The notes beneath the pieces were generated by a model. That model was given only the letters and a program-made list of their open reading frames with translations. It was not told the DNA's origin and searched no databases. 64,000 bases of DNA from Candidatus Zixiibacteriota bacterium (lineage in GTDB: Bacteria; RBG-13-66-14; B26-G2; WVWN01), in contig JAUWLW010000003.1 in NCBI GenBank assembly GCA_030613505.1, positions 41,387 through 105,386 of the forward strand. The letters run 5' to 3'. Shown here in pieces: positions 4,998 to 44,218 of the stretch (position 1 is its first letter; each line of letters starts with the position of its first letter). A program made the translations under genes and the position numbers.

Positions 4998-6350
4998 TTA
5001 AGCCAACGCGAGCACGTCGCACAACCGATCGACATCCGCCTTCGTCTTCGTCTCCGTAACCGTTACGAGCAGGCAATCGTCGTACTCCGGGTAGAAGCGG
5101 CCGAGCGGTAGCCCCGGGTCGACGCCTTTCTTCAAACAGGCCGCGCGGATTTCCTCGGCGGCCTTCGGGCACCGGAGCACGAACTCGTTAAAGGTCGGCT
5201 CGTCGAAGACCATTTCGTAACCGTCCAACCCGGTGGCGCGGTATTGAGCGTATGCCGCGTTCTGGACGTTCTGGCGCGCGAGCGCGGCGAGGCCGGAACG
5301 TCCAACGAGCGAGAGGTAGATCGTAAATATCGTCGCCGCCAACGCGTGGTTGGTGCAAATATTCGACGTCGCTTTTTCGCGGCGTATGTGCTGTTCGCGG
5401 GTTTGTAGCGTCAGGACGTACCCGGGCTTGCCCTCCACATCCGCCGTCTTGCCGACAAGGCGCCCGGGCATCTGGCGCAAGAATTCCCGGCGGGTAGTGA
5501 AGAAGCCGACGCCCGGGCCGCCGAAAGAGGGCGCCAAGCCGAAGCTCTGCCCCTCGCCCACGACGACGTCGGCGCCGAACTTGCCGGGCGGCGAAAGCGC
5601 CGCCAACGCCATCGGCTCCGCCACGGCCACGACGAGGAGTGCCCCCTCGCGGTGGCAAACGTCGCCTATTTCCGCCAGCTTCGTTTCCACCAATCCGAAG
5701 AAGTTCGGATACTGCATTACGAAGCAAGCGCTGTCGCCGAGCGACCCGGTCAGCCGGTTGAGGTCCACCGTGCCTCCGGGTTCGTAAGGCGCACAACACG
5801 GTAACGTCGCCGCCTCGACGCCGGGGATATTGGCCATATACGTTTCGACTACGCGCCGGTACTCCGGGTGCAAGTTGGGGGCTAAGACTACGCGCGAGCG
5901 TCCTTTCCTCAGTCGCAAGCACATAAGCGCCGCTTCCGCGGCCGCGGTCGCACCGTCGTACATCGACGCGTTGGCGACTTCCATCCCGGCGAGGGCCGCG
6001 ACGTACGTCTGAAATTCGAAAATGACCGCCAGCGTACCCTGGCTGACCTCTGGCTGGTACGGCGTGTAGGCGGTGTAGAATTGACTCTGACCGGCGAGGT
6101 GCCGCACCGCCGCCGGGACGAAGTGATCGTAGCAACCGGCGCCGAGGAACGAGAGTCGGTCGGTGCGGTTCACGTCGGCGAGCGCCGCCATATGGCGGAC
6201 GAGCGCCGGCTCAGCCAAAGGCTGCGGCAAGTCGAAGTCGGCCTGCAGAAGCTCGTCGGGCAACGGCCCGAAAAGCTCGTCAACGGCGCCGACGCCGATT
6301 TCTTCGAGCATCCCCTTTACGGTCTCGTCGTCGTGGGGAACGTACGGCAT
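4998..6350 (-). CDS. gcvPA: Glycine dehydrogenase (decarboxylating) subunit 1
   Basis: 450-aa ORF starting MPYVPHDDETVKGMLEEIGV, with TPYQPEVSQGTL and ATSNICTN motifs typical of the P-protein alpha subunit. Sits in gcv context. Confidence 0.9.
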   Translation of the reverse strand: MPYVPHDDETVKGMLEEIGVGAVDELFGPLPDELLQADFDLPQPLAEPALVRHMAALADVNRTDRLSFLGAGCYDHFVPAAVRHLAGQSQFYTAYTPYQPEVSQGTLAVIFEFQTYVAALAGMEVANASMYDGATAAAEAALMCLRLRKGRSRVVLAPNLHPEYRRVVETYMANIPGVEAATLPCCAPYEPGGTVDLNRLTGSLGDSACFVMQYPNFFGLVETKLAEIGDVCHREGALLVVAVAEPMALAALSPPGKFGADVVVGEGQSFGLAPSFGGPGVGFFTTRREFLRQMPGRLVGKTADVEGKPGYVLTLQTREQHIRREKATSNICTNHALAATIFTIYLSLVGRSGLAALARQNVQNAAYAQYRATGLDGYEMVFDEPTFNEFVLRCPKAAEEIRAACLKKGVDPGLPLGRFYPEYDDCLLVTVTETKTKADVDRLCDVLALA

Positions 6351-6386
6351 TAACGTCCTCCTCCAACGGGTTCCTCCATCCGGCCG

Positions 6387-6416
6387 TTAAATAAAACGAG
6401 GGGCCGCAACCCCTCG
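6387..6416 (-). terminator. Rho-independent terminator/attenuator between gcvH and gcvPA
   Basis: On the minus strand a 7-bp GC stem (CGAGGGG/CCCCTCG, 6397-6403 with 6410-6416) and a 6-nt loop are followed by TTTTATTT. Confidence 0.45.
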
Positions 6417-6471
6417 CCGGCGAGGAAGCGCGACCAGCCTACGGCCGGCCGGCGCGGCGCGCCACAAATCA

Positions 6472-6849
6472 TTATGCTCCGATGAATTCTTTATATTCCG
6501 CCGCGGTTTTGAGGTTTTCAACTTCCGAGGGGTCTTTTAACTCGACCTTTACGAGCCAACCTTCGCCATAACAATCGCGGTTGACCAGGGCGGGGTCCTG
6601 GGTCGCGGCGTCGTTTACTGCGACGACCTTCCCGGAAAGGGGAGCGTAAAGGTCCGACGCCGCCTTCACGGATTCCACGACGCCGAATTCACTACCGGCC
6701 GTTACCTCGGCGCCGACTCCCGGTAATTCCAAATACACGATGTCGCCCAGTTCCGACTGGGCGTGGTCCGTAAGGCCCAGCGTAGCGACTTTGCCGTCGA
6801 TCTTTATCCACTCATGCGTCTCGCTGTAATTCAGTTCCTCCGGGTTCAC
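6472..6849 (-). CDS. gcvH: Glycine cleavage system H protein
   Basis: 125 aa with the lipoyl-lysine motif ESVKAASDLYAPLSG. Confidence 0.92.
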   Translation of the reverse strand: MNPEELNYSETHEWIKIDGKVATLGLTDHAQSELGDIVYLELPGVGAEVTAGSEFGVVESVKAASDLYAPLSGKVVAVNDAATQDPALVNRDCYGEGWLVKVELKDPSEVENLKTAAEYKEFIGA

Positions 6850-6875
6850 CCACGGCTCCTTTCCGGCAGCGGTTT

Positions 6876-7985
6876 TTACCTCCCGCCGATTAGCTTCAAA
6901 AAAGGCGTTTCTACGACGCGCGCCAAGCGCGGCTTTTTACGGACGTCGACGAGTATCTCGGTACCGACGTCGTCGTAGGGCAAGTCTAGGTACCCCAAAC
7001 CGATGTTCTCGCGCAGGCTGGGGGAATACGACCCGGACGTAACGCGGCCGATGCTTTTTTCATCCGCGTCTATGATGGCGTAATCGTGGCGCGGAATGCC
7101 CGCGTCCACCATAACGAAACCGGCCAGCTTCCGCTTGACGCCGTCTTTTTTCTGTTCGCCCAGGGCGTCCTTGCCTATGAAATCGCCCTTATCGAACTTG
7201 ACGGTCCAGCCTATACCCGCTTCGAGCGGCGACGTTCCCTCGTCGATGTCGTTGCCGTAAAGGCAGTACTTCATCTCGAGCCGGAGGGTATCGCGCGCGC
7301 CCAGGCCGACCGGAACGCCCCCAATCCCGGCGGTGAGGTCGAAGAGCGCGTCCCACACTGCGCCGGCGCTCGCCGCGTCCACGTACACTTCGAAGCCGTC
7401 CTCGCCGGTGTAACCCGTCCGAGAGACGCGGACCGGTATATCGTCGATGACGGAATATTCAAACTGGTAGTAACGGAGTTCGCTTAAATCCTCGGCCACA
7501 GCTTCCGCCATTATCGCTTCCGACTGCGGCCCCTGTATCGCTATCAGCGCCGTTTGGAGCGATTTATCTTCGACCTTCAAGCTCTTGGGGAGGTGGCTTA
7601 CGACCCAGCCGTAATCCTTTTCGACGTTAGAGGCGTTCACGACCAGCATGAACGTCTCGTCCTCGTCGCGGTATACCAGGATATCGTCTACTATGCCGCC
7701 CTGGGGAGTGCAGATGGGGGTATATAACGCCTTTCCGATGCCCAATTTCCCGACGTTGTTCGAGACGAGTTTGTCTAACGCCGAGGGTACGCCCTTGCCG
7801 GAGACGTAGAACTCACCCATGTGACTCAGGTCGAAGATGCCGGCGTTTTCGCGTACCGTAACGTGCTCGTCGATAATGCCCGAGTATTGCACCGGCATAA
7901 CGAACCCGGCGAACTCGACCATTTTGGCGCCGAGCGACACGTGTCTGTCGTAAAGGGGGGGCTTGATCGCCTTCGCCATAGACAT
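6876..7985 (-). CDS. gcvT: Aminomethyltransferase (glycine cleavage T protein)
   Basis: T-protein sequence runs from MSMAKAIKPPLYDRHVSLGAKMVEFAGFVMPVQY. Start set to ATG 7985 (AAGGGG upstream). The ORF-track extension to 8117 overlaps the aminotransferase gene and is Arg-rich noise. Confidence 0.9.
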   Translation of the reverse strand: MSMAKAIKPPLYDRHVSLGAKMVEFAGFVMPVQYSGIIDEHVTVRENAGIFDLSHMGEFYVSGKGVPSALDKLVSNNVGKLGIGKALYTPICTPQGGIVDDILVYRDEDETFMLVVNASNVEKDYGWVVSHLPKSLKVEDKSLQTALIAIQGPQSEAIMAEAVAEDLSELRYYQFEYSVIDDIPVRVSRTGYTGEDGFEVYVDAASAGAVWDALFDLTAGIGGVPVGLGARDTLRLEMKYCLYGNDIDEGTSPLEAGIGWTVKFDKGDFIGKDALGEQKKDGVKRKLAGFVMVDAGIPRHDYAIIDADEKSIGRVTSGSYSPSLRENIGLGYLDLPYDDVGTEILVDVRKKPRLARVVETPFLKLIGGR

Positions 7986-7993
7986 ACCGCCCC

Positions 7994-9157
7994 TTACAAC
8001 GACTTTAGCGCTTCGGCCATGCGTCCTATCGCCTTCTCGATATTTTCCACGGAGTTGGCGTACGAGAACCTGATATAACCTTTGCCGTACTCGCCAAAGG
8101 AAGTGCCCGCCAGACACGCTACGCCGGCCTCATTGAGGAAGTAATCCGCGAGCCACTTCTCGTCCTTGCCGGTTCCCGTAATATTGGGGAATACGTAGAA
8201 CGCGCCCTTGGGCTTCAAGCACGTAATGCCCGGGAGTGAGTTAAGGCCGTTGACGATGACGTCGCGCCGCTCGCGGAAGGCCTCGACCATTTTCGCGGCC
8301 TCCTCTTGGGGGCCGGTTAAAGCCTCCATTCCCGCGACTTGCGAGAACGAACACGTGCAGGAGTTCGAATTGGTCATGAGGCGCGTAATGTGCGGCGCGA
8401 GGTCGGCCGGCATCGCTCCCCAGCCGAGACGCCACCCCGTCATGGCGTACGTCTTGGAGTAGCCGTCGATGATGACCGTTCGTTCCTTCATCCCGGGGAA
8501 GCTGGCTACCGAACGGTGATCGCCCTCGTAGAGGGTGCGGCCGTATACCTCGTCGGAGAGAACTATCAGGTCGTGCTTCACGGCGAGTTCTACGATAGCC
8601 CCTAGGTCTTCCTTCGTCAACACGCCGCCGGTAGGGTTTTGCGGCGAGTTGACGACGATCATCCGCGTCTTATCGGTGATGAGCGACGCCAGCTCGTTCA
8701 CGTCGAGGCGGAAGTCGAGCTCCTCGCGCAAACGTACCGGCACCGCTTTGGCGCCAATATAATTAATCATGGATTCGTAGATGGGGAACCCGGGGTTGGG
8801 GTATATTACCTCGTCGCCTTCCTCGACGCAGGCCAAGATCGTAAAGAACATTATCGGTTTGGCGCCTGGCACTACGACTATTTCGTCCGGCGAGTAGTCG
8901 AGGTCCCAATATTGCTTCATATACTTGGAGATGGTCTCGCGGTGCTCGGGCAAACCGGAGCTGGGGCCGTAATGGGTCCAACCCTGGTCAAGGGCTTTCT
9001 TCGCCTCCTCCCGGATGTTTACCGGCGTGTCGAAGTCCGGTTCGCCGATCTCAAGATGGACGATGTCGCGCCCATCGCACTCGAGCTTTTTCGCTTTGGC
9101 CAAAACTTCGAAAGCCGTCTCGGTACCGAGCCGGCCCATGCGTTTAGCGATGTACAT
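7994..9157 (-). CDS. Class I/II PLP-dependent aminotransferase (aspartate aminotransferase-like)
   Basis: PLP-lysine motif SKTYAMTGWRLGW and NPQNPTG. ATG 9157 is preferred over GTG 9160 (AGGAGA 5 nt upstream). Confidence 0.85.
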   Translation of the reverse strand: MYIAKRMGRLGTETAFEVLAKAKKLECDGRDIVHLEIGEPDFDTPVNIREEAKKALDQGWTHYGPSSGLPEHRETISKYMKQYWDLDYSPDEIVVVPGAKPIMFFTILACVEEGDEVIYPNPGFPIYESMINYIGAKAVPVRLREELDFRLDVNELASLITDKTRMIVVNSPQNPTGGVLTKEDLGAIVELAVKHDLIVLSDEVYGRTLYEGDHRSVASFPGMKERTVIIDGYSKTYAMTGWRLGWGAMPADLAPHITRLMTNSNSCTCSFSQVAGMEALTGPQEEAAKMVEAFRERRDVIVNGLNSLPGITCLKPKGAFYVFPNITGTGKDEKWLADYFLNEAGVACLAGTSFGEYGKGYIRFSYANSVENIEKAIGRMAEALKSL

Positions 9158-14672: not shown

Positions 14673-15197
14673 CTATTCGCTCGTCACGCCCACCGATTTA
14701 ATAATACGATCAACGACTTCCGCCGGCATAAGTTCGTCGGTTTTTATTTGGAGCGGTACTTTGTCGTATACGGGCCGGCGCTCCGCCTTAAGCTCCCTGA
14801 TGCGGCGAAGCGGGTCCGCGCTCTGGAGCAGCGCCCGCGGCTCCTCGCCCTCGAGCCGTTTTTGAATGGTTTCGGGATTAGCGCGCAAAGCCACCACCGC
14901 GCGGGATTCCTCGAACAAGCGACAATTTTTATCGTCGAGGATGGCGCCGCCGCCGGCGGCGACGACTAGACCCTGCTGCGACGTTAACTCGGCTACGAGC
15001 AGGTTCTCTTCGTCGCGGTATCGGCCTTCGCCGTAGCGGGCGAAGATGCCGGGGATGGATTCCCCCAGCCGTTCGGCGATGACGGCATCCATATCGACGA
15101 AGCGCCGCCTGAGCCGCCCCGCCAGTAACTTGCCGACGGCCGTCTTTCCGGTCCCGGAGAAACCCACCAGGTAGACATTATCTTCGGGAGTTATCAT
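14673..15197 (-). CDS. aroK: Shikimate kinase
   Basis: Walker A GFSGTGKTAVGK followed by RRFVDMD. Start set to ATG 15197 (GGAGA 6 nt upstream); the ORF track extends to 15230. Confidence 0.8.
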   Translation of the reverse strand: MITPEDNVYLVGFSGTGKTAVGKLLAGRLRRRFVDMDAVIAERLGESIPGIFARYGEGRYRDEENLLVAELTSQQGLVVAAGGGAILDDKNCRLFEESRAVVALRANPETIQKRLEGEEPRALLQSADPLRRIRELKAERRPVYDKVPLQIKTDELMPAEVVDRIIKSVGVTSE

Positions 15198-15358
15198 CCG
15201 ACGTCTCCAGATACCCGGCGAGGTTACCATACCGCGGCGACGGGTGTCAACTCCGCGACGAAGGCGTACTTTCGCCCGCGGAGGGCACTCGTCAACGGGC
15301 GCTTGCCGCGGCGCCGCCGTTGTGGTATTATTCTTTAAATAACCACGGAGATTCGACG

Positions 15359-16472
15359 ATGGAAGACTTAAGCGAACTCGAGCAACAGCTGGATAAACTT
15401 ACCCGCGCGGTGGACGACGTCCGGGACGGCCTTTGACCCGGAAAACACCGCCAACCGTATCGTCGACCTTGAGGAAAAGGCCGGCGCTCCGGACCTTTGG
15501 GGAAACCGCGACCGGGCCCAGGCGTTACTCGCCGAGCTGAGCCGTCTTAAAAAACGGGCCGAAGCGCTTGCCGCGGCCGAAAAGAAGCTTGAGGATTTGG
15601 GCGTCTTCTACCAACTCTGCCTCGAGGAACAAGCCGCATGCGCCGACTTCGCCTGCGAGCTCTCGGCTCTGGATGCAGAGGTCGAGCGCCTGTCTTTGTT
15701 GACCTTCCTGGGAGGGCCGTACGACGCTTCCGACGCCATCGTGGAGGTCAAACCCGGCGCGGGCGGCGTGGACGCCTCCGATTGGGCCGAGATGCTCTTT
15801 AGGATGTACCTCAAGTGGTGCGAGGCACGGGGGTATCAATGCGACGTCCTGGCGGCCGAGGTCGCCGAAGAAGCCGGCGTACGGCTCACTATGTTCGAAG
15901 CCCGCGGCGATTACGCGTACGGCAACCTGAGCTGCGAGGCCGGCGTCCACCGCCTGGTGCGGATATCACCCTTCGACCAAAAAGGCCGCCGCCATACCTC
16001 GTTCGCCAACGTCGCCGTGTGGCCCAAACTCGACGAGAAGGTGCAGGTGGAGATAGACGAGAGCAACCTCAAGGTAGACACGTTCCGCTCGTCGGGGCCC
16101 GGCGGCCAGCACGTGAACGTTACGGACTCGGCGGTGCGCATGACCCACCTCCCCACCGGCATCGTCGTATGTTGCCAGGCCGAACGTTCGCAACACCTTA
16201 ACCGCCTCCGGGCGCTGGAGGTATTGCGCGCGAAATTACACCAATTAAAAGAGGACGAGCGACGGGCTCGCGTCGAAGACCTCAAGGGGCCCAAACGCGA
16301 CATCGCGTGGGGGAACCAAATACGCTCTTACGTCCTCTTCCCGTACCAGCTGGTCAAAGACTTGCGGACGGGATACGAGACGAGCGACGTCGACGGCGTC
16401 CTCGACGGCGGCCTTGACGAATTGATCGCCGCGGCGCTAAAGTGGCGCGGCAAGAAGGGGGGCCGGAATTAA
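15359..16472 (+). CDS. prfB: Peptide chain release factor 2, requiring a programmed +1 frameshift at 15431-15437
   Basis: Frame 0 runs from ATG 15359 for 25 codons (MEDLSELEQQLDKLTRAVDDVRDGL) and ends at CTT TGA C. The +1 frame from 15435 continues DPENTANRIVDLEEKAGAPDLW... into the listed ORF 15597..16472, which carries SPF (SPFDQKGRRHTS) and GGQ (GPGGQHVN). Confidence 0.9.
15431..15437 (+). promoter_or_regulatory. RF2 autoregulatory +1 frameshift site CUU UGA C
   Basis: The exact heptamer CTTTGAC falls at codon 25-26 of prfB. Both flanking frames encode RF2 sequence. Confidence 0.85.
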
Positions 16473-17092
16473 TGGTCGAAAAGTTTCTTAAAGCGGCATT
16501 AAGCCGCCCGGTTGGAGCCGTTACTGCTTTATTGGTAATAAGCGCCACGGCCGCCGGTAGCGAAGAACTCGTCGTCCCCGCGTACCCGGCGGACGTTCGC
16601 GACAAACCGTTCGAGGTCAACGTCGTGACGTGCGGCGCCCTCGACGCCGGCAAACTCGCCGTTTGTAAGGTTATATACAACGACGGCGCATCCGCCTTCG
16701 CAGACGCCGCTTCGGCCGCGTTCGAAAAATGTACCTTCGACGCCGGCCGCGACCGCGCGACTGTTTGGTTCGTCTTCCGCCTGATGCGGGATACGAAAGC
16801 GGTAGACGCCTCGCGCGACCCGGAACGCGAATTCGACGCGGCGCCGGAGTTGGTCGAATACGTAGCACCCACCTTCCCGCCCGGCGCGCCGTCGCTGACG
16901 ACGGAAGTAGCGCTGTACCTATTCATCGGCCCCGACGGCGGCGTCTGGTACGCCGAACAAGCCGGCGACGGCGCCGATACCCTTTACGTCGAACGCGCCC
17001 TCGCCGCGGCGCGTAAGTTTAAATTCGAGCCGGCGGTCGTTGGCGGTGAACCTACGGCGACGTGGTACTCGTTCGTATTAGAATTCAAATAA
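16472..17092 (+). CDS. Secreted protein with two TonB-C-terminal-like modules
   Basis: ATG 16472 overlaps the prfB stop (TAATG), with GAAGGGGGG upstream. Signal-like N-terminus. Segments PAYPADV... and APTFPPGAP...FEPAVVGGEP resemble TonB_C. Confidence 0.5.
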   Translation: MVEKFLKAALSRPVGAVTALLVISATAAGSEELVVPAYPADVRDKPFEVNVVTCGALDAGKLAVCKVIYNDGASAFADAASAAFEKCTFDAGRDRATVWFVFRLMRDTKAVDASRDPEREFDAAPELVEYVAPTFPPGAPSLTTEVALYLFIGPDGGVWYAEQAGDGADTLYVERALAAARKFKFEPAVVGGEPTATWYSFVLEFK

Positions 17093-17139
17093 AACGGCTC
17101 AAGGCCGAAGCCGTACAAAGGGCAAAAGGGGTTAGCATA

Positions 17140-17556
17140 ATGCGCGCGTTTATTATCGTAACGACGTTCGCGGTCGCGGCCGCGGCGGCCCAGGGCGGCT
17201 TCGTCCCGGCGCAGCCGATACACGTCGAGCCGCTGGGCGAAATCGAGGTAGAGCCGGGGGTGGTTTTCGCCGACACGGTGGTACTGAAGCTCGCCGTCGA
17301 CGCCGAGGGGCAAATCACGGATGCCGAGGTATGGTCCTCCTCCGGCTACAACGTTGTAGACGCGGTGGCTTTGGCGTCGGCGCGTAAATGCATCTTTATA
17401 CCGGCCACCCAGGACGGCGAGCCCGTCGAATCTTTCTATCAGATTTATTACCGGCTCTCGGCGTACAGAACGCGGAAGTATTTGAGCGCCGAAGAAAAGG
17501 CCGGGACGGCCGGGAAAACACCTCCCCCCGAGGAGGACGATGACGGAGGAGACTAA
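17140..17556 (+). CDS. TonB-C-terminal-domain protein
   Basis: Start at MRAFIIVTTFAVAAAAAQG (signal peptide). LKLAVDAEGQITDAEVWSSSGYNVVDAVALASARKCIFIPATQDGEPV fits the TonB_C pattern. Acidic/Pro tail. Confidence 0.55.
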   Translation: MRAFIIVTTFAVAAAAAQGGFVPAQPIHVEPLGEIEVEPGVVFADTVVLKLAVDAEGQITDAEVWSSSGYNVVDAVALASARKCIFIPATQDGEPVESFYQIYYRLSAYRTRKYLSAEEKAGTAGKTPPPEEDDDGGD

Positions 17557-19894
17557 AAGCCTGCGCGATATCCGGTTGGACAAGCTCGCCCGCCTTCGCG
17601 AGCGAGGGGTCGACCCCTACCCCGTGGCGTCGACGCGAAGCCACGTCATACGCGACGTCACGACGGCCTTCGACGAGCTCGAGGGCAAAGAGGTAGCCGT
17701 CGTGGGCCGCGTCACCGCGCTCCGCCCACACGGCAGGGCCTCCTTCGCCGACGTAACCGACGCCACCGGTAAGATACAGCTGTACTTCAAATCGGACCTG
17801 CTGGGCGAGAGGTACGAGCTCTTCGACCTCCTGGACCTGGGCGACTTCGTGGGCGCCGCGGGTAAAGTTTTTAAGACTAAAACGGGTGAGATCACGATCG
17901 CCGCCGAGGACTTCACGCTCCTGGCCAAAGGGCTCCGCACGCCGCCGGTGGTGAAGACCGAAAAAACGGAAGAGGGCGACGTCACCCACGACGAGTTCGC
18001 CGACCCGGAGAAGCGGTACCGGAAGCGCTACCTCGACGTGATGGTCAACCCGCAGGCGCGGGCCTGCGTCCTCACCCACGCCGAAGTGCTCCGGGCGGCG
18101 CGGCGGTTCATGGCGGAACAGGGCTACGCCGAGATCGAGACCCCCATCCTCCAGCCGCTGTACGGCGGCGCCAACGCCTCCCCGTTCACCACCCGACACC
18201 GCGACCTGGAGATGGACCTCTACCTTCGCATCGCCGACGAGCTCTACCTCAAACGCCTTCTCGTCGCCGGCCTCGAGAAGGTTTACGAAATCGGCAAAGA
18301 CTTCCGCAACGAATCCATCGACCGGACCCACTACCCGGAATTCACCATGCTCGAGGCGTACGAGGCCTTCGGCGACTACCGGACGATGATGGCGCTGACC
18401 CGGGGCCTTATAATCGCCGCCGCGGAAGAGATACGTGGCACGTTGAAGCTGACGTACCAGGGCCGGGAAGTAACCCTCGAGCCACCGTGGGCCCGGGTCT
18501 CGCTGGTCGCGACGTTGAACGAACGGCTGGACGTGGACGTTCTGAATGAAGAGACGCAAACGCTCTCCGACCTTTACGTCCTACATTACCTGAAACGTTA
18601 CGACGAACCACAGCGGGGAAATACTGAAACCAATGAGAAAAAAGCGAGAGAAGCTATGTACGGTGCTTCGCGCGCCAAGGTAATCGACGCGCTTTTTGAC
18701 TTATTAGTGGCTTGCGATATTTGGAACCCGACGTTCGTGGTGGACTACCCGGCGGAACTTTCGCCCCTCGCCAAAAGGCAACCCGACAACCCGGCGCTCG
18801 CAGAGCGCTTCGAGCTATACCTTTGTAATATGGAAATAGCCAACGCCTTTAGCGAGCAAAACGACCCGGCCGAGCAGCGCAAGGCGCTGGAGGCGCAGGC
18901 GGAGGCCGGGGCCGCCGGCGACGAGGAAGCGCAACAGATGGACGAGGACTTCCTGGAGGCGCTCGAGTACGGCATGCCGCCCGCCGGCGGCTTGGGCGTC
19001 GGCATCGACCGCCTCGCGATGATCCTCTCCGATGCCCCCAGCATCCGCGAGGTCATCGCTTTTCCGTGTATAAAAACGGACATTGAACGAGCGGTAACGA
19101 AAGAGGTAGCGCTATCCGAACTGAGGCGACTATATATAGAAATTGTAGGTGAAAGTATCGATAAAGACCCGAATAAAAAATACTTAGAATACAAATATGT
19201 ACCTATGTTAATGGGGATAGTCGTGGGGGTTAAGCGCTCCACAGCGAAAGGAATCGTAGAATACGATTTGCGTTCTGGGATGGTTAACGACCCGCGTTTC
19301 GCGACGAGGAAGTTTAACGAATACCAAAACAAAATAAGAGCATATTTCGGCGACGAATTCCCTAAAGATAAGTTAGATCACTATTTCCAAGAATTTTATA
19401 TTAAGGGAGCCGAAGACGCTGCTATTAAGAATTCGTTATTCGAAATGCACGCGGAGTTAATCGATATCTTAGTATGCGAAGAAAAGATTAGACTTATAGA
19501 AAGGATAACCGTCATAGGAAAACCTATAAGGGCGAAGACTGGTCCCGTATTCGGATTTGGAGTAAAAGGTGCATGGGATATTAAAGTGGGTAAAGTTTAC
19601 TTCGCAGTAACGACCCAGGGAAGGAACGAAACTTCGTTCAGGATATTCCCGGATTTGAAATACTTTGATTCCACAATAAAGTCAGGGACACTTTCTGGGC
19701 TGATAGATTTTACTAAAAAAAGTGAAAAGCTCAAAATAGGTTTACCGATCGAACGAAGTGAACTAGAAGATAAAATTATAGAACTATCCTTAATTTACGA
19801 ACCTATACCTTTCCCGGAAGTCCCGGGACCGCACTCGCTTAGAAAAAAGATAGATAGTATAGATATTACCGAAGACATACTTGCATTATTATAA
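17540..19894 (+). CDS. lysS: Lysine--tRNA ligase (class IIb) fused in frame to a 275-aa non-native C-terminal extension
   Basis: Residues 1-509 form a complete LysRS: OB-fold N-terminus, motif 2 DFRNESIDRTHYPEFTMLE, motif 3 [22 protein letters not shown]. From codon 510 (TGT, 19067) the ORF continues through AT-rich sequence to 19894 instead of ending a few codons after AFP. Confidence 0.9.
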   Translation: MTEETKSLRDIRLDKLARLRERGVDPYPVASTRSHVIRDVTTAFDELEGKEVAVVGRVTALRPHGRASFADVTDATGKIQLYFKSDLLGERYELFDLLDLGDFVGAAGKVFKTKTGEITIAAEDFTLLAKGLRTPPVVKTEKTEEGDVTHDEFADPEKRYRKRYLDVMVNPQARACVLTHAEVLRAARRFMAEQGYAEIETPILQPLYGGANASPFTTRHRDLEMDLYLRIADELYLKRLLVAGLEKVYEIGKDFRNESIDRTHYPEFTMLEAYEAFGDYRTMMALTRGLIIAAAEEIRGTLKLTYQGREVTLEPPWARVSLVATLNERLDVDVLNEETQTLSDLYVLHYLKRYDEPQRGNTETNEKKAREAMYGASRAKVIDALFDLLVACDIWNPTFVVDYPAELSPLAKRQPDNPALAERFELYLCNMEIANAFSEQNDPAEQRKALEAQAEAGAAGDEEAQQMDEDFLEALEYGMPPAGGLGVGIDRLAMILSDAPSIREVIAFPCIKTDIERAVTKEVALSELRRLYIEIVGESIDKDPNKKYLEYKYVPMLMGIVVGVKRSTAKGIVEYDLRSGMVNDPRFATRKFNEYQNKIRAYFGDEFPKDKLDHYFQEFYIKGAEDAAIKNSLFEMHAELIDILVCEEKIRLIERITVIGKPIRAKTGPVFGFGVKGAWDIKVGKVYFAVTTQGRNETSFRIFPDLKYFDSTIKSGTLSGLIDFTKKSEKLKIGLPIERSELEDKIIELSLIYEPIPFPEVPGPHSLRKKIDSIDITEDILALL
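18972..19066 (+). repeat. Left copy of the 95-bp imperfect direct repeat (lysS 3' end)
   Basis: 84/95 nt identical to 20760..20854 by hand alignment. Encodes [31 protein letters not shown]. Confidence 0.9.
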
Positions 19895-20759
19895 TACTAG
19901 CGATCTTCCTAGCCTATGCTCCTAACATCCGAGAGGTAATAGCCTTCGCGTAACTGCGGGTTAAATAATATTAACGGTAAAATATGGTTTGGAATATAGA
20001 TAAAATATGGCCTTGGGCCGTTGGATATATATGCATTATTGGTTGCGTAATAATATTCCGTCTTATATCTAATCGGAGAAAACTTAGGACGGGCGCCGGT
20101 AAAAAACCAACGTCGGAAGTTGAACGGAAAATATTCAATTTCCAAGAATTCCTTCTATCATTAGCGATATTCGGATTAATCCTCAATTTTTACAGCCTCG
20201 AACTTAATAGGATTAATACCGAGAAAAATTTGGAAAACTATGAGGTAACTAATAGACCATATATCTTTATTAGGAAAATTAACGGCAAATTAGATAAAAC
20301 TACGAATGTTTTAAACTGTAGAGTCGCGATAATTAACACAGGTTCTGTACCGAGTTTGAATACTAAAATCACTGGCAAGGTTTTTTTTGGTGATGAATCC
20401 TACGAAAGCAAAGATAAACCAGGTTATTCAGCGATTTATCCGGAATCCTTAGTCTGGACCAGGTTCGGTTTTCCCGTTGATCCAGTAAAACCCGTTAAAA
20501 TCGTTAATAAAGTGACTTATTCCGATTACCGCGGGTATTTATACGAATACGAAGTCCATATTAGATATAATCGCGAGTTCCATAGTTTCACGTTCGAGAA
20601 ATCTGACGAGACTATTACTAAACCTCAATTACCTAATTAAAAAGCCCGCGTATTATTTCGGGAGTAAGACGTAGGGAATTAAAGGGTAAGATCGCCGGCA
20701 GTAAGAAAGGTTAATGGGCTTCGTAAAGGTACTCATTTGGCCTGCTATAATATTCTCCA
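19067..20759. mobile_element. AT-rich ~1.7-kb insertion in the lysS 3' end (no integrase or transposase seen; mechanism unknown)
   Basis: Sharp composition break: hand counts of single 60-nt lines give 20/60 G+C (19381-19440) and 15/60 (20221-20280), versus 45/60 at 18961-19020. The segment is bounded exactly by the two repeat copies. Confidence 0.7.
19984..20640 (+). CDS. Hypothetical 2-TM membrane protein (island cargo)
   Basis: 218-aa AT-rich ORF. Hydrophobic helices WPWAVGYICIIGCVIIF and FLLSLAIFGLILNFY are followed by a ~140-aa soluble domain. No family recognised. Confidence 0.5.
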   Translation: MVWNIDKIWPWAVGYICIIGCVIIFRLISNRRKLRTGAGKKPTSEVERKIFNFQEFLLSLAIFGLILNFYSLELNRINTEKNLENYEVTNRPYIFIRKINGKLDKTTNVLNCRVAIINTGSVPSLNTKITGKVFFGDESYESKDKPGYSAIYPESLVWTRFGFPVDPVKPVKIVNKVTYSDYRGYLYEYEVHIRYNREFHSFTFEKSDETITKPQLPN

Positions 20760-20854
20760 GCATGCCGCCCGCCGGCGGCCTGGGCGTCGGCGTCGACCGC
20801 GTCGCGATGATCCTGGCCGACGCGTCCAACATCCGCGAGGTCATCGCGTTCCCG
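20760..20854 (+). repeat. Right copy of the 95-bp imperfect direct repeat
   Basis: Encodes [31 protein letters not shown]. The sequence then continues QLRVKK-stop, the expected LysRS ending. Confidence 0.9.
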
Positions 20855-20875
20855 CAGCTTAGGGTAAAAAAGTGA
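20762..20875 (+). pseudogene. Displaced native 3' end of lysS (last 37 codons plus TGA)
   Basis: GC-rich fragment [37 protein letters not shown]. It is a motif-3-to-terminus piece of a class II LysRS with no upstream catalytic core. Confidence 0.8.
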
Positions 20876-20899
20876 CGGCTATCTTCTCGCAATAGGCTA

Positions 20900-21613
20900 A
20901 TGTTTTCGTATACCGCCGCCATGGAAGGAATAGAAATCCCCACCCGCGAGCTCGTCTTAGGGCTCGTCGGCGTATACAACCGGGCGCACTGGCCCGCGGC
21001 GGCCTTCGGCGCCGTCGTCGCGTTGGCCGCGGCCGCGTTCGTATTGGCCAGGCCCGGCGCCTTCAGCGACTTAATAGTTAAAATTCTGCTCAACGTGTTG
21101 TGGCTCTGGACCGCCATTATCTTCTTTTGGGGCCGCTTCGCGCCCGATTTCCACGTCGCCTATCTCTTCGCCTTCGCCTTCATACTACAGGGCACTTTTT
21201 TCTTTATGGACGCCTTCTTCGGAACGTTGGAATTCCGACCTTTTAAAAGTCCCGCCACGCTATTAATAGGGTGTTCGTTGATCGGCGTGGCCGGAATCTT
21301 ACACCCTATTATTTCGACCTGGCTCGGCCGCGGTTGGCCCGAGCTGAGGCTCGTAGGCACCGCGCCGGGGCCCACCGCGGCATTTACGTTGGCCCTACTC
21401 ACTTTCACGCTCCATAAGCCGAGGCCGCTATTTTTCGTGGTCCCCGCGGCCTGGGCGCTAATCGCCGGCCTTTGCGTCGCCGAGGCCTGGCACTTTTACG
21501 AGGAATTAATCCTGGCCGGCGTCGCGGCCGCGGTTATACTTTATTTCGTAGCCGCCTTATGGCGAACGCTGCCCGTACGCGAATCTAAACCCGCCGGAGG
21601 AGCTACCCCATGA
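20900..21613 (+). CDS. Polytopic membrane protein, paralog 1 (family not confidently named)
   Basis: ~6 hydrophobic helices. Shares ARPG..SD, LEFRPF/IEFRPY and GWPEL motifs with the next gene. Confidence 0.6.
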   Translation: MFSYTAAMEGIEIPTRELVLGLVGVYNRAHWPAAAFGAVVALAAAAFVLARPGAFSDLIVKILLNVLWLWTAIIFFWGRFAPDFHVAYLFAFAFILQGTFFFMDAFFGTLEFRPFKSPATLLIGCSLIGVAGILHPIISTWLGRGWPELRLVGTAPGPTAAFTLALLTFTLHKPRPLFFVVPAAWALIAGLCVAEAWHFYEELILAGVAAAVILYFVAALWRTLPVRESKPAGGATP

Positions 21614-22257
21614 CAAGCGCAGAGGCATTTACATCCTTCCTCGCGGAATTCAACCGCGCCGTCTTTCCGGCGCATATCCTCTTCTACCTGCTGGCGATAG
21701 GCGCGGCGTTCCTCGTCTTCGCGCGCCCCGGCAAGTGGTCCGACGTCGCCGCGAAAGGCGTCCTGGCGGTCCTTTGGGCCTGGCTCGGCATCTTCTACAT
21801 GATAACGTTTTACACGCGGATAAATTCCGCCGGCTACGCCTGGGGCGCGCTATTCCTCCTGCAGGCGGCATTTTTCGCCGTCGAAATCTTTTGGCCCAAG
21901 ATCGAATTCCGGCCGTACTTTCACCCGAAGCTCGGCCACATCGGCGCGACCGTCGCCGGGTGGTCGCTGGTGGGGTACCCCATAACGGCGCTGATATTCA
22001 AACACGGGTGGCCCGAGCTCGCGCTCTTCGGCTGCGCGGCGCCGGTAGCGATATTCACGTGCGGGATGCTGCTCTTCACCTTCGACCGCAAACCGCGCTG
22101 GCGCTTCACGTTCATACCGTTCCTGTGGTCCGTCGTGGGCGGCCTCGGACCCGCGGTGCAGTGGCGCTACTTCGAAGATTACGCCCTCTTCGCCGCCGGC
22201 CTTATATTGCTCGCCGCGTGGATATGGGCTTCTTACAAATACAAGAAAAAGAAATAG
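21610..22257 (+). CDS. Polytopic membrane protein, paralog 2
   Basis: 4-nt ATGA overlap with paralog 1. Collinear similarity: FNRAVFPAHI, ARPGKWSD, IEFRPYF, HGWPELALFG. Confidence 0.6.
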   Translation: MTSAEAFTSFLAEFNRAVFPAHILFYLLAIGAAFLVFARPGKWSDVAAKGVLAVLWAWLGIFYMITFYTRINSAGYAWGALFLLQAAFFAVEIFWPKIEFRPYFHPKLGHIGATVAGWSLVGYPITALIFKHGWPELALFGCAAPVAIFTCGMLLFTFDRKPRWRFTFIPFLWSVVGGLGPAVQWRYFEDYALFAAGLILLAAWIWASYKYKKKK

Positions 22258-22326
22258 GACCTTGCGCGAATTCGAAAAAGGAAACGTAACCCAAAACGAA
22301 ACGTACGCGGGGACGCCGACCGACCT

Positions 22327-23295
22327 ATGAACCACCTCCCTATAATTACAGCCACGCTGGCGGCCGCCCTCGCGGCAACGTCCGCGGCGACGTACGTATA
22401 CGAAGGGCAATGGGGCCGGTTGGGTACGGGCCACGGCGCGTTCACGGAGGTCTCCGGCGTCGCCGTGGCGCCGAACGGAAACGTCTACGTCTCCGACCAG
22501 GGTAACAATTGCATCCAATACTTTACGGCCGGCGGCAGCTTCCTCGGCAAGTGGGGGACGGCCGGTACGGAGCCGGGGCAATTCAACAGGCCGTTCGGCG
22601 TGGCGGTCGCGCCAAAAGGAAGGGTATACGTCGCCGATACGCGTAACGACCGCATACAATACTTCACCGCGACCGGCAGCTACCTCGGCCGATGGGGCCG
22701 GCCTGGGTCGGGGGCGGGAGAGTTCGATAGACCCCGGGGCATCGCGGTTGCACGTAGCGGGAACGTCTTCGTCGCCGACGCCGAGAACGACCGCGTACAA
22801 CGGTTCACCGCCAACGGCGGTTACTTGGGGAAGTGGGGTCACAGCGGTAAACGCGACGGCCAGTTCGACTTCCCCGCCGACGTCGCGCTCGCGCCCGACG
22901 GCCGGGCGTACGTGGCGGACGCCGGGAACGCGCGGGTCCAATATTTTACGGCGTTCGGGACGTTTCTGGGTAAATGGGGCTCGTGGGGCTACGGCAAAGG
23001 CCAATTCTTCTTCCCGAAAAATATAACCGTTTCGGCCGACGAACGGGTATTCGTGACGGAGGATTTCAACCACCGCGCCCAGTATTTTACGACGAGCGGC
23101 AGTTTTCTTGGAATGTGGGGCTCGCTCGGAAAGGGCGAAGGAGAATTCAACGAGCCGCGGGGCGTCGCGACGTTTAATAACGGCAAACGCGTCTACACCG
23201 CGGACAGGTGGAACGACCGCGTCCAGTATTTCCGGCGCGTGGAATACGACATCGAGCCGTGCTCGCTCGGGCGCGTCAAAGCGCTCTTCGAATAA
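22327..23295 (+). CDS. Secreted NHL-repeat beta-propeller protein, copy 1
   Basis: Signal peptide, then six units of the type GQFNRPFGVAVAPKGRVYVADTRNDRIQYFT. C-terminus EPCSLGRVKALFE. Confidence 0.85.
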   Translation: MNHLPIITATLAAALAATSAATYVYEGQWGRLGTGHGAFTEVSGVAVAPNGNVYVSDQGNNCIQYFTAGGSFLGKWGTAGTEPGQFNRPFGVAVAPKGRVYVADTRNDRIQYFTATGSYLGRWGRPGSGAGEFDRPRGIAVARSGNVFVADAENDRVQRFTANGGYLGKWGHSGKRDGQFDFPADVALAPDGRAYVADAGNARVQYFTAFGTFLGKWGSWGYGKGQFFFPKNITVSADERVFVTEDFNHRAQYFTTSGSFLGMWGSLGKGEGEFNEPRGVATFNNGKRVYTADRWNDRVQYFRRVEYDIEPCSLGRVKALFE

Positions 23296-23391
23296 CGGAC
23301 ATCATCACCTCTTCCGTTAGGAACAAACGGCGAGTACGATTATTAACGGGACCGTACGACGGTCTCACCGCTTACCCGGGGAGGTTCGAAT

Positions 23392-24369
23392 ATGAGAATA
23401 GGAATTGCGACGGCGGCCGTATTACTAGCCACGACAGCGGCGTTCGCCGACTTCGCGTACGAAGGGAAGTGGGGCGCGCAAGGGACCGGCGAAGGGCAGT
23501 TCGACCACCCGTGGGACGTCGCCGTTGCGCCCGGCGGCCGGGTTTTCGTCGTCGACCGCCACAACCACCGCGTCCAGTACTTCACGCCTACCGGGAGTTA
23601 CCGCGGGAAGTGGGGCTCGTACGGCACCGGCGCCGGCAAGTTCCGCTTTCCCTCCGGGATCGCCGCCTCGGCGACCCGCGTGTACGCGGGCGATTCGCTG
23701 AACCACCGGATACAATACTTCACAAGCGCGGGGAGTTTCCTGGCATCTTGGGGCGCCGCCGGGACGGGCGAGGGACAATTCAATAAGCCGCTGGGGGTAG
23801 CCCTGGCGCCGAACGGCAACGTATACGTCGTGGACGCCGGCAATTACCGCGTCCAGTACTTTTCGCCGGCGGGGAGCTTCCTGGGCAGTTGGGGCGCGCG
23901 GGGCAGCGGCCAGGGCCAATTCGACGACCCACAAGGGATAGCGGTAGGCGAAAACGGCAACGTTTACGTCGCGGACGCCGGCAATCACCACGTCCAGCGG
24001 TTTACTTCGGGCGGGAGCTACGTGCGGTCGTGGGGCACGCGTGGAACCGGCGACGGCCAATTCAATACGCCGTGCGGCGTCGCGGTCGGCCCGGAAGGCA
24101 ACATATACGTCGTCGATTGCTACAACCACCGCATCCAGTACTTTACGCCGACGGGTAGTTTCCTCGGCAAGTGGGGCTCCTTCGGCACCGGCGACGGCCA
24201 ACTCAATTACGCGTGGGGCGTCGCCGCGACGCGGTGGAGCCGCGGTGATACGTCGACGGTACGAGTATACGTCGCGGATACCAACAACAACCGCGTGCAA
24301 TATTTTAAGGACGGCCTGCCCGCGGTCGAGCCGACGTCGTTGGGGCGCGTAAAAGGGCTTTTCAAATAA
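23392..24369 (+). CDS. Secreted NHL-repeat beta-propeller protein, copy 2
   Basis: Signal peptide MRIGIATAAVLLATTAAFA and six NHL units. C-terminus EPTSLGRVKGLFK. Confidence 0.85.
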   Translation: MRIGIATAAVLLATTAAFADFAYEGKWGAQGTGEGQFDHPWDVAVAPGGRVFVVDRHNHRVQYFTPTGSYRGKWGSYGTGAGKFRFPSGIAASATRVYAGDSLNHRIQYFTSAGSFLASWGAAGTGEGQFNKPLGVALAPNGNVYVVDAGNYRVQYFSPAGSFLGSWGARGSGQGQFDDPQGIAVGENGNVYVADAGNHHVQRFTSGGSYVRSWGTRGTGDGQFNTPCGVAVGPEGNIYVVDCYNHRIQYFTPTGSFLGKWGSFGTGDGQLNYAWGVAATRWSRGDTSTVRVYVADTNNNRVQYFKDGLPAVEPTSLGRVKGLFK

Positions 24370-24466
24370 ATCGCGTAACGGACCTGACGGCAACTTCCTA
24401 ACACGGCTCCGGTTCGGGACGGCGTTCGCGCCGAGCCGGTAATCACATCTGAACAAAGGACGGAAA

Positions 24467-25432
24467 ATGAAACGAGTATCGATACTAGCCGCTCTCTCAA
24501 TTTGTATCGCCGCGGCCGCCTCCGCCGATTTTAAATACGCCGGCCAGTGGGGCTCGCCCGGTACCGCCGCGGGCGAATTCAACGCGCCGACGGGGATAGC
24601 GGTCGCGCCCAACGGCAACGTCTACGTCGCCGACGAGTTCAACCATCGCATCCAATACTTCACCGCCGCCGGCAGCTTCCTCGGCCGGTGGGGTTCGCGC
24701 GGCTCCGGTAAGGGTGAGTTTATCTACCCCGCCGACGTGGCGGTGGCGCCCAACGGCAACGTCTACGTCGCCGACTTCGACAACAATCGGATCCAGTACT
24801 TCAAACCGAACGGCACGTTCGTGGGCAAGTGGGGCGAGTACGGCATCTTGCCGCGGTTCTTCAATAAGCCGCACGGCGTCGCCGTAGCGCGCAACGGCAA
24901 CGTCTACGTGGCGGATACCTATAACAATCGCGCGCAGTACTTCACTCGAGCCGGCAGCTTCCTGGGCTCCTGGGGCACTAAAGGCGCCGCCGACGGCCAA
25001 TTCGACCAACCCATTAGCATCGCCGTCGCGCCCCACGGCAACGTCTACGTCGCGGACCGGCTCAACAACCGGGTGCAGTACTTCGACGCCAAGGGCGCCT
25101 TCCTCGGTAAATGGGGCACGAAGGGCTTCGGCTGGGGACAATTCGAGTACCCCTCGGCTATAGCGGCCAGCCCCGACTACCGCATCTACGTCACCGATTA
25201 CTCCTGGCACCACGTCCAGTATTTTACGGCGTCCGGCAGCTTCCTCGGCAAATGGGGAGGCCAAGGGACGCTCAACGGCGAATTCAACTTCCCCGACGGC
25301 ATCGCCATTTCGCCGGCGGGTACGAAGGCGTACGTGGCCGACTCCGGCAATAACCGCATTCAGTACTTCAAGCGCGTCGAGCCCGCCGTCGCGCCTACGT
25401 CGCTTGGGCGCGTGAAGGCGCTGTTTAAATAA
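24467..25432 (+). CDS. Secreted NHL-repeat beta-propeller protein, copy 3
   Basis: Signal peptide MKRVSILAALSICIAAAASA and six NHL units. C-terminus APTSLGRVKALFK. Confidence 0.85.
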   Translation: MKRVSILAALSICIAAAASADFKYAGQWGSPGTAAGEFNAPTGIAVAPNGNVYVADEFNHRIQYFTAAGSFLGRWGSRGSGKGEFIYPADVAVAPNGNVYVADFDNNRIQYFKPNGTFVGKWGEYGILPRFFNKPHGVAVARNGNVYVADTYNNRAQYFTRAGSFLGSWGTKGAADGQFDQPISIAVAPHGNVYVADRLNNRVQYFDAKGAFLGKWGTKGFGWGQFEYPSAIAASPDYRIYVTDYSWHHVQYFTASGSFLGKWGGQGTLNGEFNFPDGIAISPAGTKAYVADSGNNRIQYFKRVEPAVAPTSLGRVKALFK

Positions 25433-25448
25433 TAATTAAACTAACGCT

Positions 25449-26228
25449 TTGGGAAAAACGGTCAATTTATTGACCGGTATTGTTGCCGGCCTAAACGTCA
25501 TCTTACCATCCGTCGTCGCCGGCGGAACCGCCGTCGAAGGACTTACGGCGGAAAAAGCGGGAATACCCGAGCGAGATTTCATATCTCCCGAAACCGCAAA
25601 AAAATTAGCAGCCCCGCTTCGGGACCCTTTGGCGGGTGATTACGTCGTTGAGAACACGATAGTATTCCCTTGGTTAATAGAAGATTGGAACGTCTACGAG
25701 CCCGATATAAAAATGGGTTTTTACGAGATAACCGTCTACAGCGGTAAAACTCGATACTCCACGCACGCTGCCTTAAACGCCAAGGTAGAAGAATATCTTC
25801 GTTCGGTTAAGCCGCTCATTTACATCCGCAGCGGCGAGTGGTACGTGGAACCTCGGGAGTTACTATCTAGAGAAGCGTTAACCCGTGAATTATTCGGATA
25901 CTCCGACGTAATTACTTACTGGATCCCGGTTAATAAAAAATACGGCCGAAAAAGGTCGTCGTGGTCTGATAGCGCTATCGGTTGGAATACGCTGATGTTA
26001 CATATATGTAGTACCGTAGCCTCGAAGGTCGCCCCTAGTCATAACCCGGTTTATGAAAAGACGATTAAATTTTCCGGTTTAAACGAATTCACGATTTTTA
26101 GAATTAATAGTGAGGAGATTTTCATACAGACCGGGGATATACACAACCGGCACCGTATATTTACCAGTAAAGCGGATTTCGACGAATATTTACTGGCGAA
26201 CGTCGAAACGATCAAGGTTAAAGAATGA
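25449..26228 (+). CDS. Hypothetical protein in an AT-rich islet
   Basis: 259-aa ORF (TTG start in the track) with a hydrophobic N-terminus LLTGIVAGLNVILPSVVAGG. Hand-counted G+C is 18/60 at 26041-26100 and 24/60 at 25681-25740. No family recognised. Confidence 0.45.
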   Translation: MGKTVNLLTGIVAGLNVILPSVVAGGTAVEGLTAEKAGIPERDFISPETAKKLAAPLRDPLAGDYVVENTIVFPWLIEDWNVYEPDIKMGFYEITVYSGKTRYSTHAALNAKVEEYLRSVKPLIYIRSGEWYVEPRELLSREALTRELFGYSDVITYWIPVNKKYGRKRSSWSDSAIGWNTLMLHICSTVASKVAPSHNPVYEKTIKFSGLNEFTIFRINSEEIFIQTGDIHNRHRIFTSKADFDEYLLANVETIKVKE

Positions 26229-44124: not shown

Positions 44125-44218
44125 ACCGGGGACGCGATGAGAAGGTCGAGCAAAGGGGCGGCCCATATCGACCCGGGGAGGGATACGCCGAGATTGTAAC
44201 CTGGATGGCAAAAAAACC

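Follow-up and report, generated by a model that had tools for sequence, protein, structure and literature searches.

Nested copies of the lysS gene end and a strain-variable AT-rich insertion in a Candidatus Zixiibacteriota bacterium

The window analysed here is a 64-kb stretch of DNA from an uncultured marine-sediment bacterium of the Candidatus Zixiibacteriota, and the coordinates below are positions within it. The 3′ end of its lysS gene, which encodes lysyl-tRNA synthetase (LysRS), has a 1.7-kb AT-rich patchwork in which a 275-codon extension of the synthetase reading frame (the tail) and a second open reading frame (ORF), termed ORF2, are interspersed with copies of the lysS end. The explanation favoured here, which as a whole appears fairly probable, is that the segment 19067–20759 is a recombinational mosaic at a strain-variable hotspot and not a self-contained two-gene cassette. 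Such a cassette, with two unassignable ORFs that form a possible accessory pair, had been proposed in an earlier, sequence-only reading of this DNA. The coordinates given there, the 275-codon lysS extension, the 218-aa ORF with two transmembrane segments, the 89-nt gap and the shared AT-rich composition have all been reproduced. That the DNA is foreign and strain-variable is borne out by its composition and by empty-site contigs in two sequencing runs, X2 and X6.

Structure of the lysS 3′ region

The GC content drops from ~0.62 to 0.34–0.44 across ~19050–20800, the sole such trough in the window. The elements are found in the order lysS core, R1, tail, R2, ORF2, spacer, 16-codon stub, R3 and a pair of DUF6064 genes, where R1, R2 and R3 are copies of the lysS end. 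They are listed below; L001 is a sibling genome (GCA_030589375.1), and X3 and X6 are sequencing runs.

17540..19894, plus strand: whole lysS ORF, 784 aa
17540..19066, plus strand: lysS proper, class II LysRS residues 1–509, ending ...IREVIAFP
18491..19066, plus strand: foreign-allele tract in lysS, ~575 nt, delimited by blastn against L001, by protein alignment and by X6 and X3 contigs
18972..19066, plus strand: R1, the copy of the lysS 3′ repeat that is still part of the gene, GC 0.71; direct-repeat family D2
19067..19894, plus strand: tail, 275 AT-rich codons in the lysS frame plus stop; no homologue; soluble
19900..19971, plus strand: R2, an AT-rich (GC 0.46) decayed copy of the last 24 lysS codons; repeat family D1
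19984..20640, plus strand: ORF2, 218 aa, 89 nt after the lysS ORF; two transmembrane segments and a beta-rich domain; GC at third codon positions (GC3) 0.35
20641..20713: spacer that separates ORF2 from the stub, 73 nt, GC 0.45; neither a promoter-like nor a terminator-like site
20714..20761, plus strand: stub, the 16-codon 5′ end of a native-type ORF2-family gene, joined straight to R3
20760..20875, plus strand: R3, the displaced native lysS 3′ end, GC 0.68

An abrupt composition switch in metagenome-derived sequence might point to an assembly chimera, in which unrelated AT-rich DNA has been joined to lysS. However, an identical 2.4 kb has been assembled independently in Logan and ENA assemblies, and the same junctions are present in contigs of runs from three different studies. 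In run X1, the depth over the insert is 30.8, compared with 29–33 over the flanks. Run X4 has a ~97% identical variant, whose contigs span both the lysS/tail junction and the right-hand junction and show no indels. For practical purposes, these observations refute a chimera.

R1 and R3 form a 95-nt direct repeat with 88% identity. R3 keeps the native lysS end as this repeat plus the last seven codons; it is 94% identical to the lysS end of L001 (blastn), and its C-terminus is the same as that of the relatives L004–L011. These relatives are eight distant loci, with LysRS 71–87% identical, from metagenome-assembled genomes (MAGs) labelled Candidatus Coatesbacteria, Zixiibacteriota or unclassified. 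The L010 locus (87%) stops within lysS. The seven loci that have the lysS 3′ end (L004–L009 and L011) all end IAFPQLR[VIT]K..., and none of the seven has an AT-rich trough downstream of lysS. R3 is regarded as the native lysS end because the relatives end lysS likewise.

R2 places a whole lysS terminus between the two ORFs. It is out of frame with the tail, and a Gln codon has been turned into a stop. R2 and R3 have 17 codon differences: nine are synonymous, mostly to A/T-ending codons, and eight are non-synonymous, including two stops. The synonymous changes to A/T-ending codons indicate that R2 functioned for some time as a lysS terminus in AT-richer surroundings before it decayed. The lysS-end copies are 884 and 904 nt apart and begin at unequal offsets, R3 at 95 nt before the terminal FP and R2 at 54 nt. 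A possible 17-nt tandem duplication (19877–19893/19894–19910), the removal of which puts the tail in frame with R2, was also considered; it matches at 10/17 nt and was not relied on.

At the level of the lysS allele, R1 plus ~480 nt upstream is by sequence comparison a foreign allele and not the native one. At 18491–18727 the window has 237 nt that are not alignable to the sibling allele, which has 207 nt in this position, and the 207-nt alternative segment is carried by contigs of X6 and X3. By blastn against L001, identity is 86% at 18728–19066, compared with 96–98% in the flanks (95.7% and 97.8%), and no alignment is obtained at 18523–18728. In protein alignment, the LysRS insertion-domain segment differs from that of L001 from ~residue 328 onwards. 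As the best database match to the foreign lysS tract is partial and just 63% identical, the donor lineage would appear to be unsampled. The insertion-domain segment encoded by 18491–18727 (…DVLNEETQTLSDLYVLHYLKRYDEPQRGNTETNEKKAREAMYG…) is unlike that of every relative.

The right-hand junction has a different character. Here the stub, which is a truncated ORF2-family gene, runs directly into the final 119 nt of lysS. The stub is identical at 38/48 nt to the 5′ end of the ORF2-family member in the relative L006 (MNFVQVLIWSAIIFSC), and the stub and R3 meet at a microhomology of 2–3 nt (..CAGC/ATGCC..). A chimeric ORF with an ATG is present at 20714–20875 and encodes 53 aa, the stub plus MPPAGG... 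of the displaced lysS end. This ORF is most likely a pseudogene; it could yield a small peptide with the LysRS C-terminal strand.

The insert has no promoter-like or terminator-like site above chance, no Rfam family was matched in it, and no tRNA is near the site. Within the 1.7 kb only the tail and ORF2 are encoded, and there is no mobility gene. Nor is there a recombinase among the genes identified at 14673–25432, where a 185-aa ORF was unscanned and, of three NHL-repeat paralogues, only NHL1 was Pfam-scanned.

Strains with 95–98% identical flanks show three states: an empty site, an ORF2 homologue only (L001), and tail, R2 and ORF2 together. The empty site is found in contigs of X2 (depth 6.6) and X6 (depth 52), which join 18971 to 20760 and bear the native-type lysS allele, with 207 nt in place of 18491–18727. 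The full mosaic is present in X1 and, at ~97% identity, in X4; X2, X3 and X5 additionally contain contigs of low depth that match the insert exactly. Delivery into an essential gene had been thought to make loss of the cargo costly. Recombination between R1 and R3 would, however, regenerate a normal lysS, and sibling strains have exactly that join; the insert is thus not locked in.

In L001 the gene order is TonB_C, lysS of normal length (505 aa), ORF2 homologue, DUF6064, DUF6064 and NHL. There is no tail and no repeat, and the boundaries of the ORF2 homologue differ from those in the window. At 2850–2900 of L001, the initial ~10 codons of the upstream DUF6064 gene also differ from the window (MAPSPIGNYEIP... 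compared with MFSYTAAMEGIEIP...), which suggests that a recombination tract with the L001 allele of ORF2 ends inside DUF6064. In L006, three extra genes at 3980–7379, where GC is slightly lower (0.53–0.60), are found between lysS and the ORF2-family gene; they encode two PD40 beta-propeller proteins and a 347-aa protein. The junction after lysS thus appears to be variable across the clade, beyond the species of the window.

The LysRS extension

Residues 52–510 of LysRS match the Pfam families tRNA_anti-codon (OB fold) and tRNA-synt_2 (class II core, which ends at residue 510), and the protein aligns with solved LysRS structures up to FP. The tail opens at codon 510 (19067) with CIKTDIERAV..., closes with ...DITEDILALL before the stop, and has no hydrophobic segment. 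It appears to be a real coding sequence and is most simply read as a LysRS fusion. By our own estimate, an open frame of 275 codons at 38% GC has a chance probability of ~1e-8. The tail is in frame and coding-like up to the junction, and in X4 it is also fused and open. Its first 45 codons contain no ATG, GTG or TTG and score as coding in the lysS frame alone (+8.5 bits, compared with −35 and −25). An internal start at a downstream Met cluster had been put forward as an alternative to fusion. The lack of start codons over the first 45 positions, and of a Shine–Dalgarno-like sequence upstream of Met47, unlike lysS and several other host genes, favours the fusion, and we infer that ribosomes reach the tail only through LysRS, to which it forms a C-terminal extension.

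Between the window and X4, the tail has 24 substitutions but neither an indel nor a stop. Ten of the 24 are synonymous, where 5.8 are expected (p = 0.04); the figures for ORF2 are 7/17 and 3.8 (p = 0.06), and pooling the two gives p = 0.003. The divergence of the insert (~3%) is like that of the flanks (2.7–5.7%), which indicates that the fusion is older than the split between the window and X4 strains.

No homologue of the tail was found in a word-indexed search of 5.8 billion proteins or in an exhaustive phmmer search of 1.84 billion representative proteins. Pfam, PHROGs, PADLOC, NCBIfam and PDB sequences gave nothing, and neither did tblastn in phage and plasmid collections, in IMG/VR or in all 85 fetched loci. 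There is likewise no Pfam or PDB sequence match to the known tRNA-binding or regulatory domains appended to aminoacyl-tRNA synthetases (EMAPII, WHEP, GST-like and others). The tail was also compared with ORF2, with an AT-rich ORF at 25449 and with the 347-aa L006 gene as possible paralogues; there is no similarity to any of them. Modelling suggests that the N-terminal half may be helical and the C-terminal half strand-rich, where the AlphaFold2 model of the tail alone (single sequence) has a predicted local distance difference test score (pLDDT) of 33.8 and is unusable.

The fusion point follows directly on the final strand of the LysRS core. The solved bacterial LysRS structures 3a74 and 9jkl end two to three residues past the end of the alignment at FP, and the 777-aa LysRS of 4up7 carries ~200 extra C-terminal residues. 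As LysRS proteins have natural ends or appended domains at this position, the enzyme with the tail probably stays active. Perhaps the tail has a selected function as a LysRS appendage, or perhaps it is a tolerated passenger whose sole constraint is to do the enzyme no harm; these two possibilities appear evenly balanced.

ORF2, its family and the neighbouring genes

ORF2 has hydrophobic segments at ~residues 7–31 and 56–74, followed by a beta-rich C-terminal part. The loop between the two transmembrane helices is rich in Lys and Arg, and by the positive-inside rule this loop would be cytoplasmic and the C-terminal domain would face outward. The ORF2 start codon, ATG, is 12 nt past the last stop of R2; the homologue in L001 starts 13 nt past the lysS stop.

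ORF2 has no match in Pfam, PHROGs, PADLOC, NCBIfam or PDB sequences, nor in phage, plasmid or IMG/VR collections, and first scans of JGI metagenomes and GTDB genomes with a three-sequence alignment gave nothing. When ORF2 was compared by tblastn with the lysS-anchored loci, the L006 member surfaced, and a four-sequence alignment run against JGI metagenomes added L084 and L085. The family consists of the window copy and five other members (P0002, L001, L084, L085 and L006), with tblastn E-values of 1e-32 to 1e-58, the L006 match having E = 1e-32. The six align end to end (alignment A4) with 40 invariant columns and share the motifs QE before the second transmembrane segment, YEVxNRPY, NxGSxP, YxAxYP, YxDYR, Y.Y and DE. 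It had been stated that neither ORF can be assigned to any family. This holds for the tail, which has no homologue anywhere searched, and no curated family matches either ORF; it does not hold for ORF2, given its five other family members.

At the sequence level the family has two subfamilies, which are 30–37% identical to each other. The AT-rich subfamily (window, P0002, L001 and L084) has members 50–80% identical among themselves, with a nearly invariant segment proximal to the second transmembrane helix. The GC-normal subfamily (L085 and L006) has 62% identity. The L001 protein is 67% identical to ORF2 (71% by blastn). The L006 member, with GC 0.59 and GC3 0.81, ends 5 nt before the DUF6064 pair. 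In L085 the lysS end (PQLRTKRP and stop) opens the contig; the family member, with GC3 0.83, is found 24 nt on, followed by DUF6064, DUF6064 and NHL.

The position lysS–ORF2–DUF6064–DUF6064 is thus found in the window, L001 and L085, with L006 differing by its three extra genes after lysS. L084 is the exception. Its homologue, at 7986–8603, belongs to the AT-rich subfamily, is 47% identical to ORF2 by tblastn and 50% in A4, has GC 0.38 in a 0.55-GC genome, and has neither lysS nor DUF6064 nearby, its context being unrelated. The neighbours, judged by eye from their translations, are presumably an outer-membrane-type gene upstream and, downstream, a gene for an MscS-like channel with a cyclic-nucleotide-binding domain. 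These properties suggest that the AT-rich subfamily moves horizontally.

By gene order and sequence comparison, the ORF2 family consists of resident genes of the locus lysS–ORF2–DUF6064–DUF6064–NHL in relatives, and the window copy is a foreign allele. The view of ORF2 as novel cargo therefore does not stand, with GC-normal homologues resident between lysS and the DUF6064 pair in relatives. ORF2 most likely works with the two downstream DUF6064 membrane proteins, as its position suggests. At the structural level there is little to add. A model of ORF2 from three sequences has a pLDDT of 52, and its best Foldseek match against the PDB (E 0.12, TM ~0.2) is meaningless. The A4 profile gives weak matches only against the PDB (the YcdA lipoprotein, E = 0.18). 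The six members taken singly against Pfam give scattered one-member matches, with a best E of 0.0026 and CARDB at E = 0.14. An Ig-like sandwich for the beta domain is at most a hint.

The genes on both sides of the mosaic are as follows.

14673–15230, minus strand: 185-aa ORF, unscanned
15372–16472: prfB (RF2), with PCRF and RF-1 domains and a CTTTGAC +1 frameshift motif at 15431
16442–17092 and 17062–17556: TonB_C genes, between prfB and lysS
20900–21613 and 21610–22257, plus strand: DUF6064 pair, tandem membrane-protein genes (Pfam PF19540), with synteny in L001, L006 and L085
22327–25432: three tandem NHL-repeat beta-propeller paralogues (322, 325 and 321 aa), 3′ of the DUF6064 pair and conserved in the relatives' loci

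A second AT-rich patch, with GC down to 0.41, is found at 25449–26228. An ORF of 259 aa within it starts with TTG, matches no Pfam family and is unrelated to the tail by BLASTP; the patch may be another strain-variable insert. The third NHL gene is on one side of it; on the other is a 423-aa ORF, which by eye we take to encode a LolE-like permease. Milder GC dips (0.44–0.47) are seen at 44101–44500 and 55701–56050.

Origin of the mosaic and comparison with known systems

The mosaic probably arose by import of a donor block from a diverged relative that already carried lysS–tail–R2–ORF2(AT)–ORF2(native). The left crossover would be inside conserved lysS near 18491. The right join would be illegitimate: the donor's native ORF2 would break off at codon 16 and run straight into the terminal 119 nt of the recipient's lysS. 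R2 would then be the trace of an earlier import of an AT-rich unit, consisting of a lysS end plus ORF2. The foreign lysS tract, the abrupt insert, the stub/R3 junction and the lack of a recombinase gene make lysS-anchored import with an illegitimate right join the simplest single account. As no internal promoter or terminator signal is above chance, the lysS operon probably supplies the transcript for both ORFs.

Several points weigh against this account and the functional readings attached to it. No contig with the inferred donor order was found. The switch in GC from 0.71 to ~0.40 is exactly at the codon boundary after FP. R2 resembles accretion at an attachment site, and an integrase acting in trans is possible. 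AT-rich ORF2 alleles are found in at least three contexts (window, L001 and L084; P0002 precedes a 385-aa gene), which suggests dedicated mobility. With 24 substitutions and p = 0.04, there is only weak evidence that the tail is under selection, and a synonymous excess is also expected if the tail need only spare the essential enzyme that it extends. The functional link between ORF2 and DUF6064 is drawn from gene order alone.

The main rival, itself unlikely, is the tandem accretion of two miniature, integrase-less elements (the tail, and R2 plus ORF2) at an attachment site in the lysS 3′ end, with a recombinase supplied in trans and R1, R2 and R3 as attachment-site copies. Three lysS-end copies do bracket two units, the left junction coincides precisely with the FP codon, and the clean empty site (18971 to 20760) is equal to one repeat copy. 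The synonymous, A/T-ending changes in R2 fit a functional mimic that was borne by an element and later decayed, and the lysS 3′ end is a target of tyrosine-integrase integrative and conjugative elements (ICEs) in Streptococcus (PMC4701971). However, no integrase is found in the insert or among the genes identified at 14673–25432, and the repeat copies start at unequal points. In addition, the right junction is a truncated ORF2-family gene and not a constant element end, and ~575 nt of lysS, well past the repeat, has been replaced along with the insert. The L001 homologue of ORF2 has other boundaries and no repeats. Homing of the tail as a selfish insertion would account for some of the same observations, and it is given very little likelihood. 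In this view the tail would encode an unrecognised nuclease or cleave itself through a Hint-like start at Cys510; its target would be the conserved motif-3/C-terminal region of lysS, and it would spread by repair-mediated copying with lysS co-conversion. The site is highly conserved and in an essential gene, presence or absence of the insert is polymorphic, and Cys510 comes directly after the IAFP junction. The ~575 nt of foreign lysS upstream resemble a co-conversion tract, a pattern that ordinary recombinational import explains equally. Yet Pfam gives no nuclease or Hint/intein match down to E = 1 and no LAGLIDADG, GIY-YIG, HNH, His-Cys or PD-(D/E)xK domain; the 275 aa contain three His and two Cys. 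Visual inspection shows neither a TxxH block nor a C-terminal HN, and no extein follows in frame; the low-confidence model opens with helices and not with Hint-type strands. The tail is also found in one lineage only among the billions of proteins searched, which is at odds with active homing. An intein module at Cys510 was considered specifically and rejected: the N-terminal Cys is present, but the fold and blocks were not found, the ORF stops and R2 is out of frame.

That tail and ORF2 are a co-functional defence, abortive-infection or addiction pair, carried on one cassette locked in an essential gene, is very improbable. Defence and addiction pairs often consist of a gene for a soluble protein and, after it, one for a small membrane protein. 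The two ORFs are adjacent on the same strand, with a common AT-rich composition and similar divergence between the window and X4. On the other hand, ORF2 homologues occur without the tail in L001, L006, L085 and L084, the tail is confined to this lineage, and R2 splits the two ORFs, so that neither a compact cassette nor a co-evolved pair is indicated. The ORF2 family is the resident partner of the DUF6064 genes, R3 permits loss without cost, and empty sites occur. PADLOC, PHROGs, Pfam and NCBIfam gave no match and no other evidence points to defence. A bolder proposal, and a distinctly unlikely one, is that the tail was acquired horizontally as a functional domain, active only within LysRS; by fusing to an essential synthetase, a foreign module would have secured its own expression. 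It might couple tRNA-Lys charging to an accessory activity, or be a new homing-type insertion that tolerates the unspliced state. In this candidate phylum, the conserved lysS end would then serve AT-rich genes as a dedicated landing pad. The account of lysS-anchored import with an illegitimate right join remains the favoured one.

Inserts that occupy the 3′ end of a housekeeping gene and leave copies of that end displaced are already known as a class. What is unusual here is that the displaced ends are nested, that a mobility gene is lacking, and that an ORFan domain on an essential synthetase has been kept through ~3% divergence. Conserved ends of housekeeping genes are known landing sites of mobile DNA, and the nested lysS-end copies would record successive imports. 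What looked like island cargo is in part a foreign allele of a resident gene. In addition, a small unnamed family of membrane proteins tied to DUF6064 has been defined, which gives a starting point for understanding DUF6064. Should the extension prove functional, this would be a rare case of a bacterial synthetase gaining an appended domain by horizontal transfer; if the tail is merely a tolerated passenger, the site would be an ordinary recombination hotspot in an uncultured lineage.

In Streptococcus, ICEs and integrative and mobilizable elements (IMEs) integrate site-specifically at the lysS 3′ end (Ambroset et al., 2016; PMC4701971). The resemblance is in the same gene end, direct lysS-end repeats that flank the insert, and occupied and empty sites. 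The Streptococcus elements are tens of kb in length, have a tyrosine integrase and a conjugation module, are flanked by 13–17 bp repeats and preserve the lysS ORF. In contrast, the insert described here is 1.7 kb in length and has no recombinase, the repeats are imperfect and 54–95 nt long, the right junction is a truncated gene, and LysRS has acquired a 275-aa tail.

The element e14 and phage 21 insert into icd of E. coli and supply a substitute 3′ end, with the native end displaced as a pseudo-fragment. The lysS mosaic is similar in that the host 3′ portion has been swapped for a diverged copy and the original end survives downstream as R3, with R2 representing an earlier round. It differs in having no prophage genes and in the lengths involved, with ~575 nt replaced and only 119 nt displaced. 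Nor does the protein terminate normally at the substitute end.

Homology-facilitated illegitimate recombination accompanies natural transformation in Acinetobacter and Streptococcus pneumoniae. Here, too, one end is anchored in a conserved homologous gene and the other is joined at a microhomology of 2–3 nt, which leaves an insertion beside the anchor, the process in this case being deduced from sequence alone.

At the protein level, the 777-aa LysRS of PDB entries 4up7–4upa, which we take to be the Entamoeba enzyme with an EMAPII-like domain, likewise has an extra domain after the ...FP end of the class II core, and the position thus tolerates large extensions. The tail differs in having no sequence similarity to that domain, in its foreign composition and strain variability, and in being found in one lineage. 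With respect to ORF2, the closest comparison is with the DUF6064 pairs that have an upstream gene with two transmembrane segments, as in L006 and L085 (Coatesbacteria/Zixibacteria-labelled MAGs). ORF2 is a full-length homologue of these genes, 32–37% identical and with the same motifs; it differs in a GC3 of 0.35, compared with 0.81–0.83, and in the stub and R3, which separate it from DUF6064.

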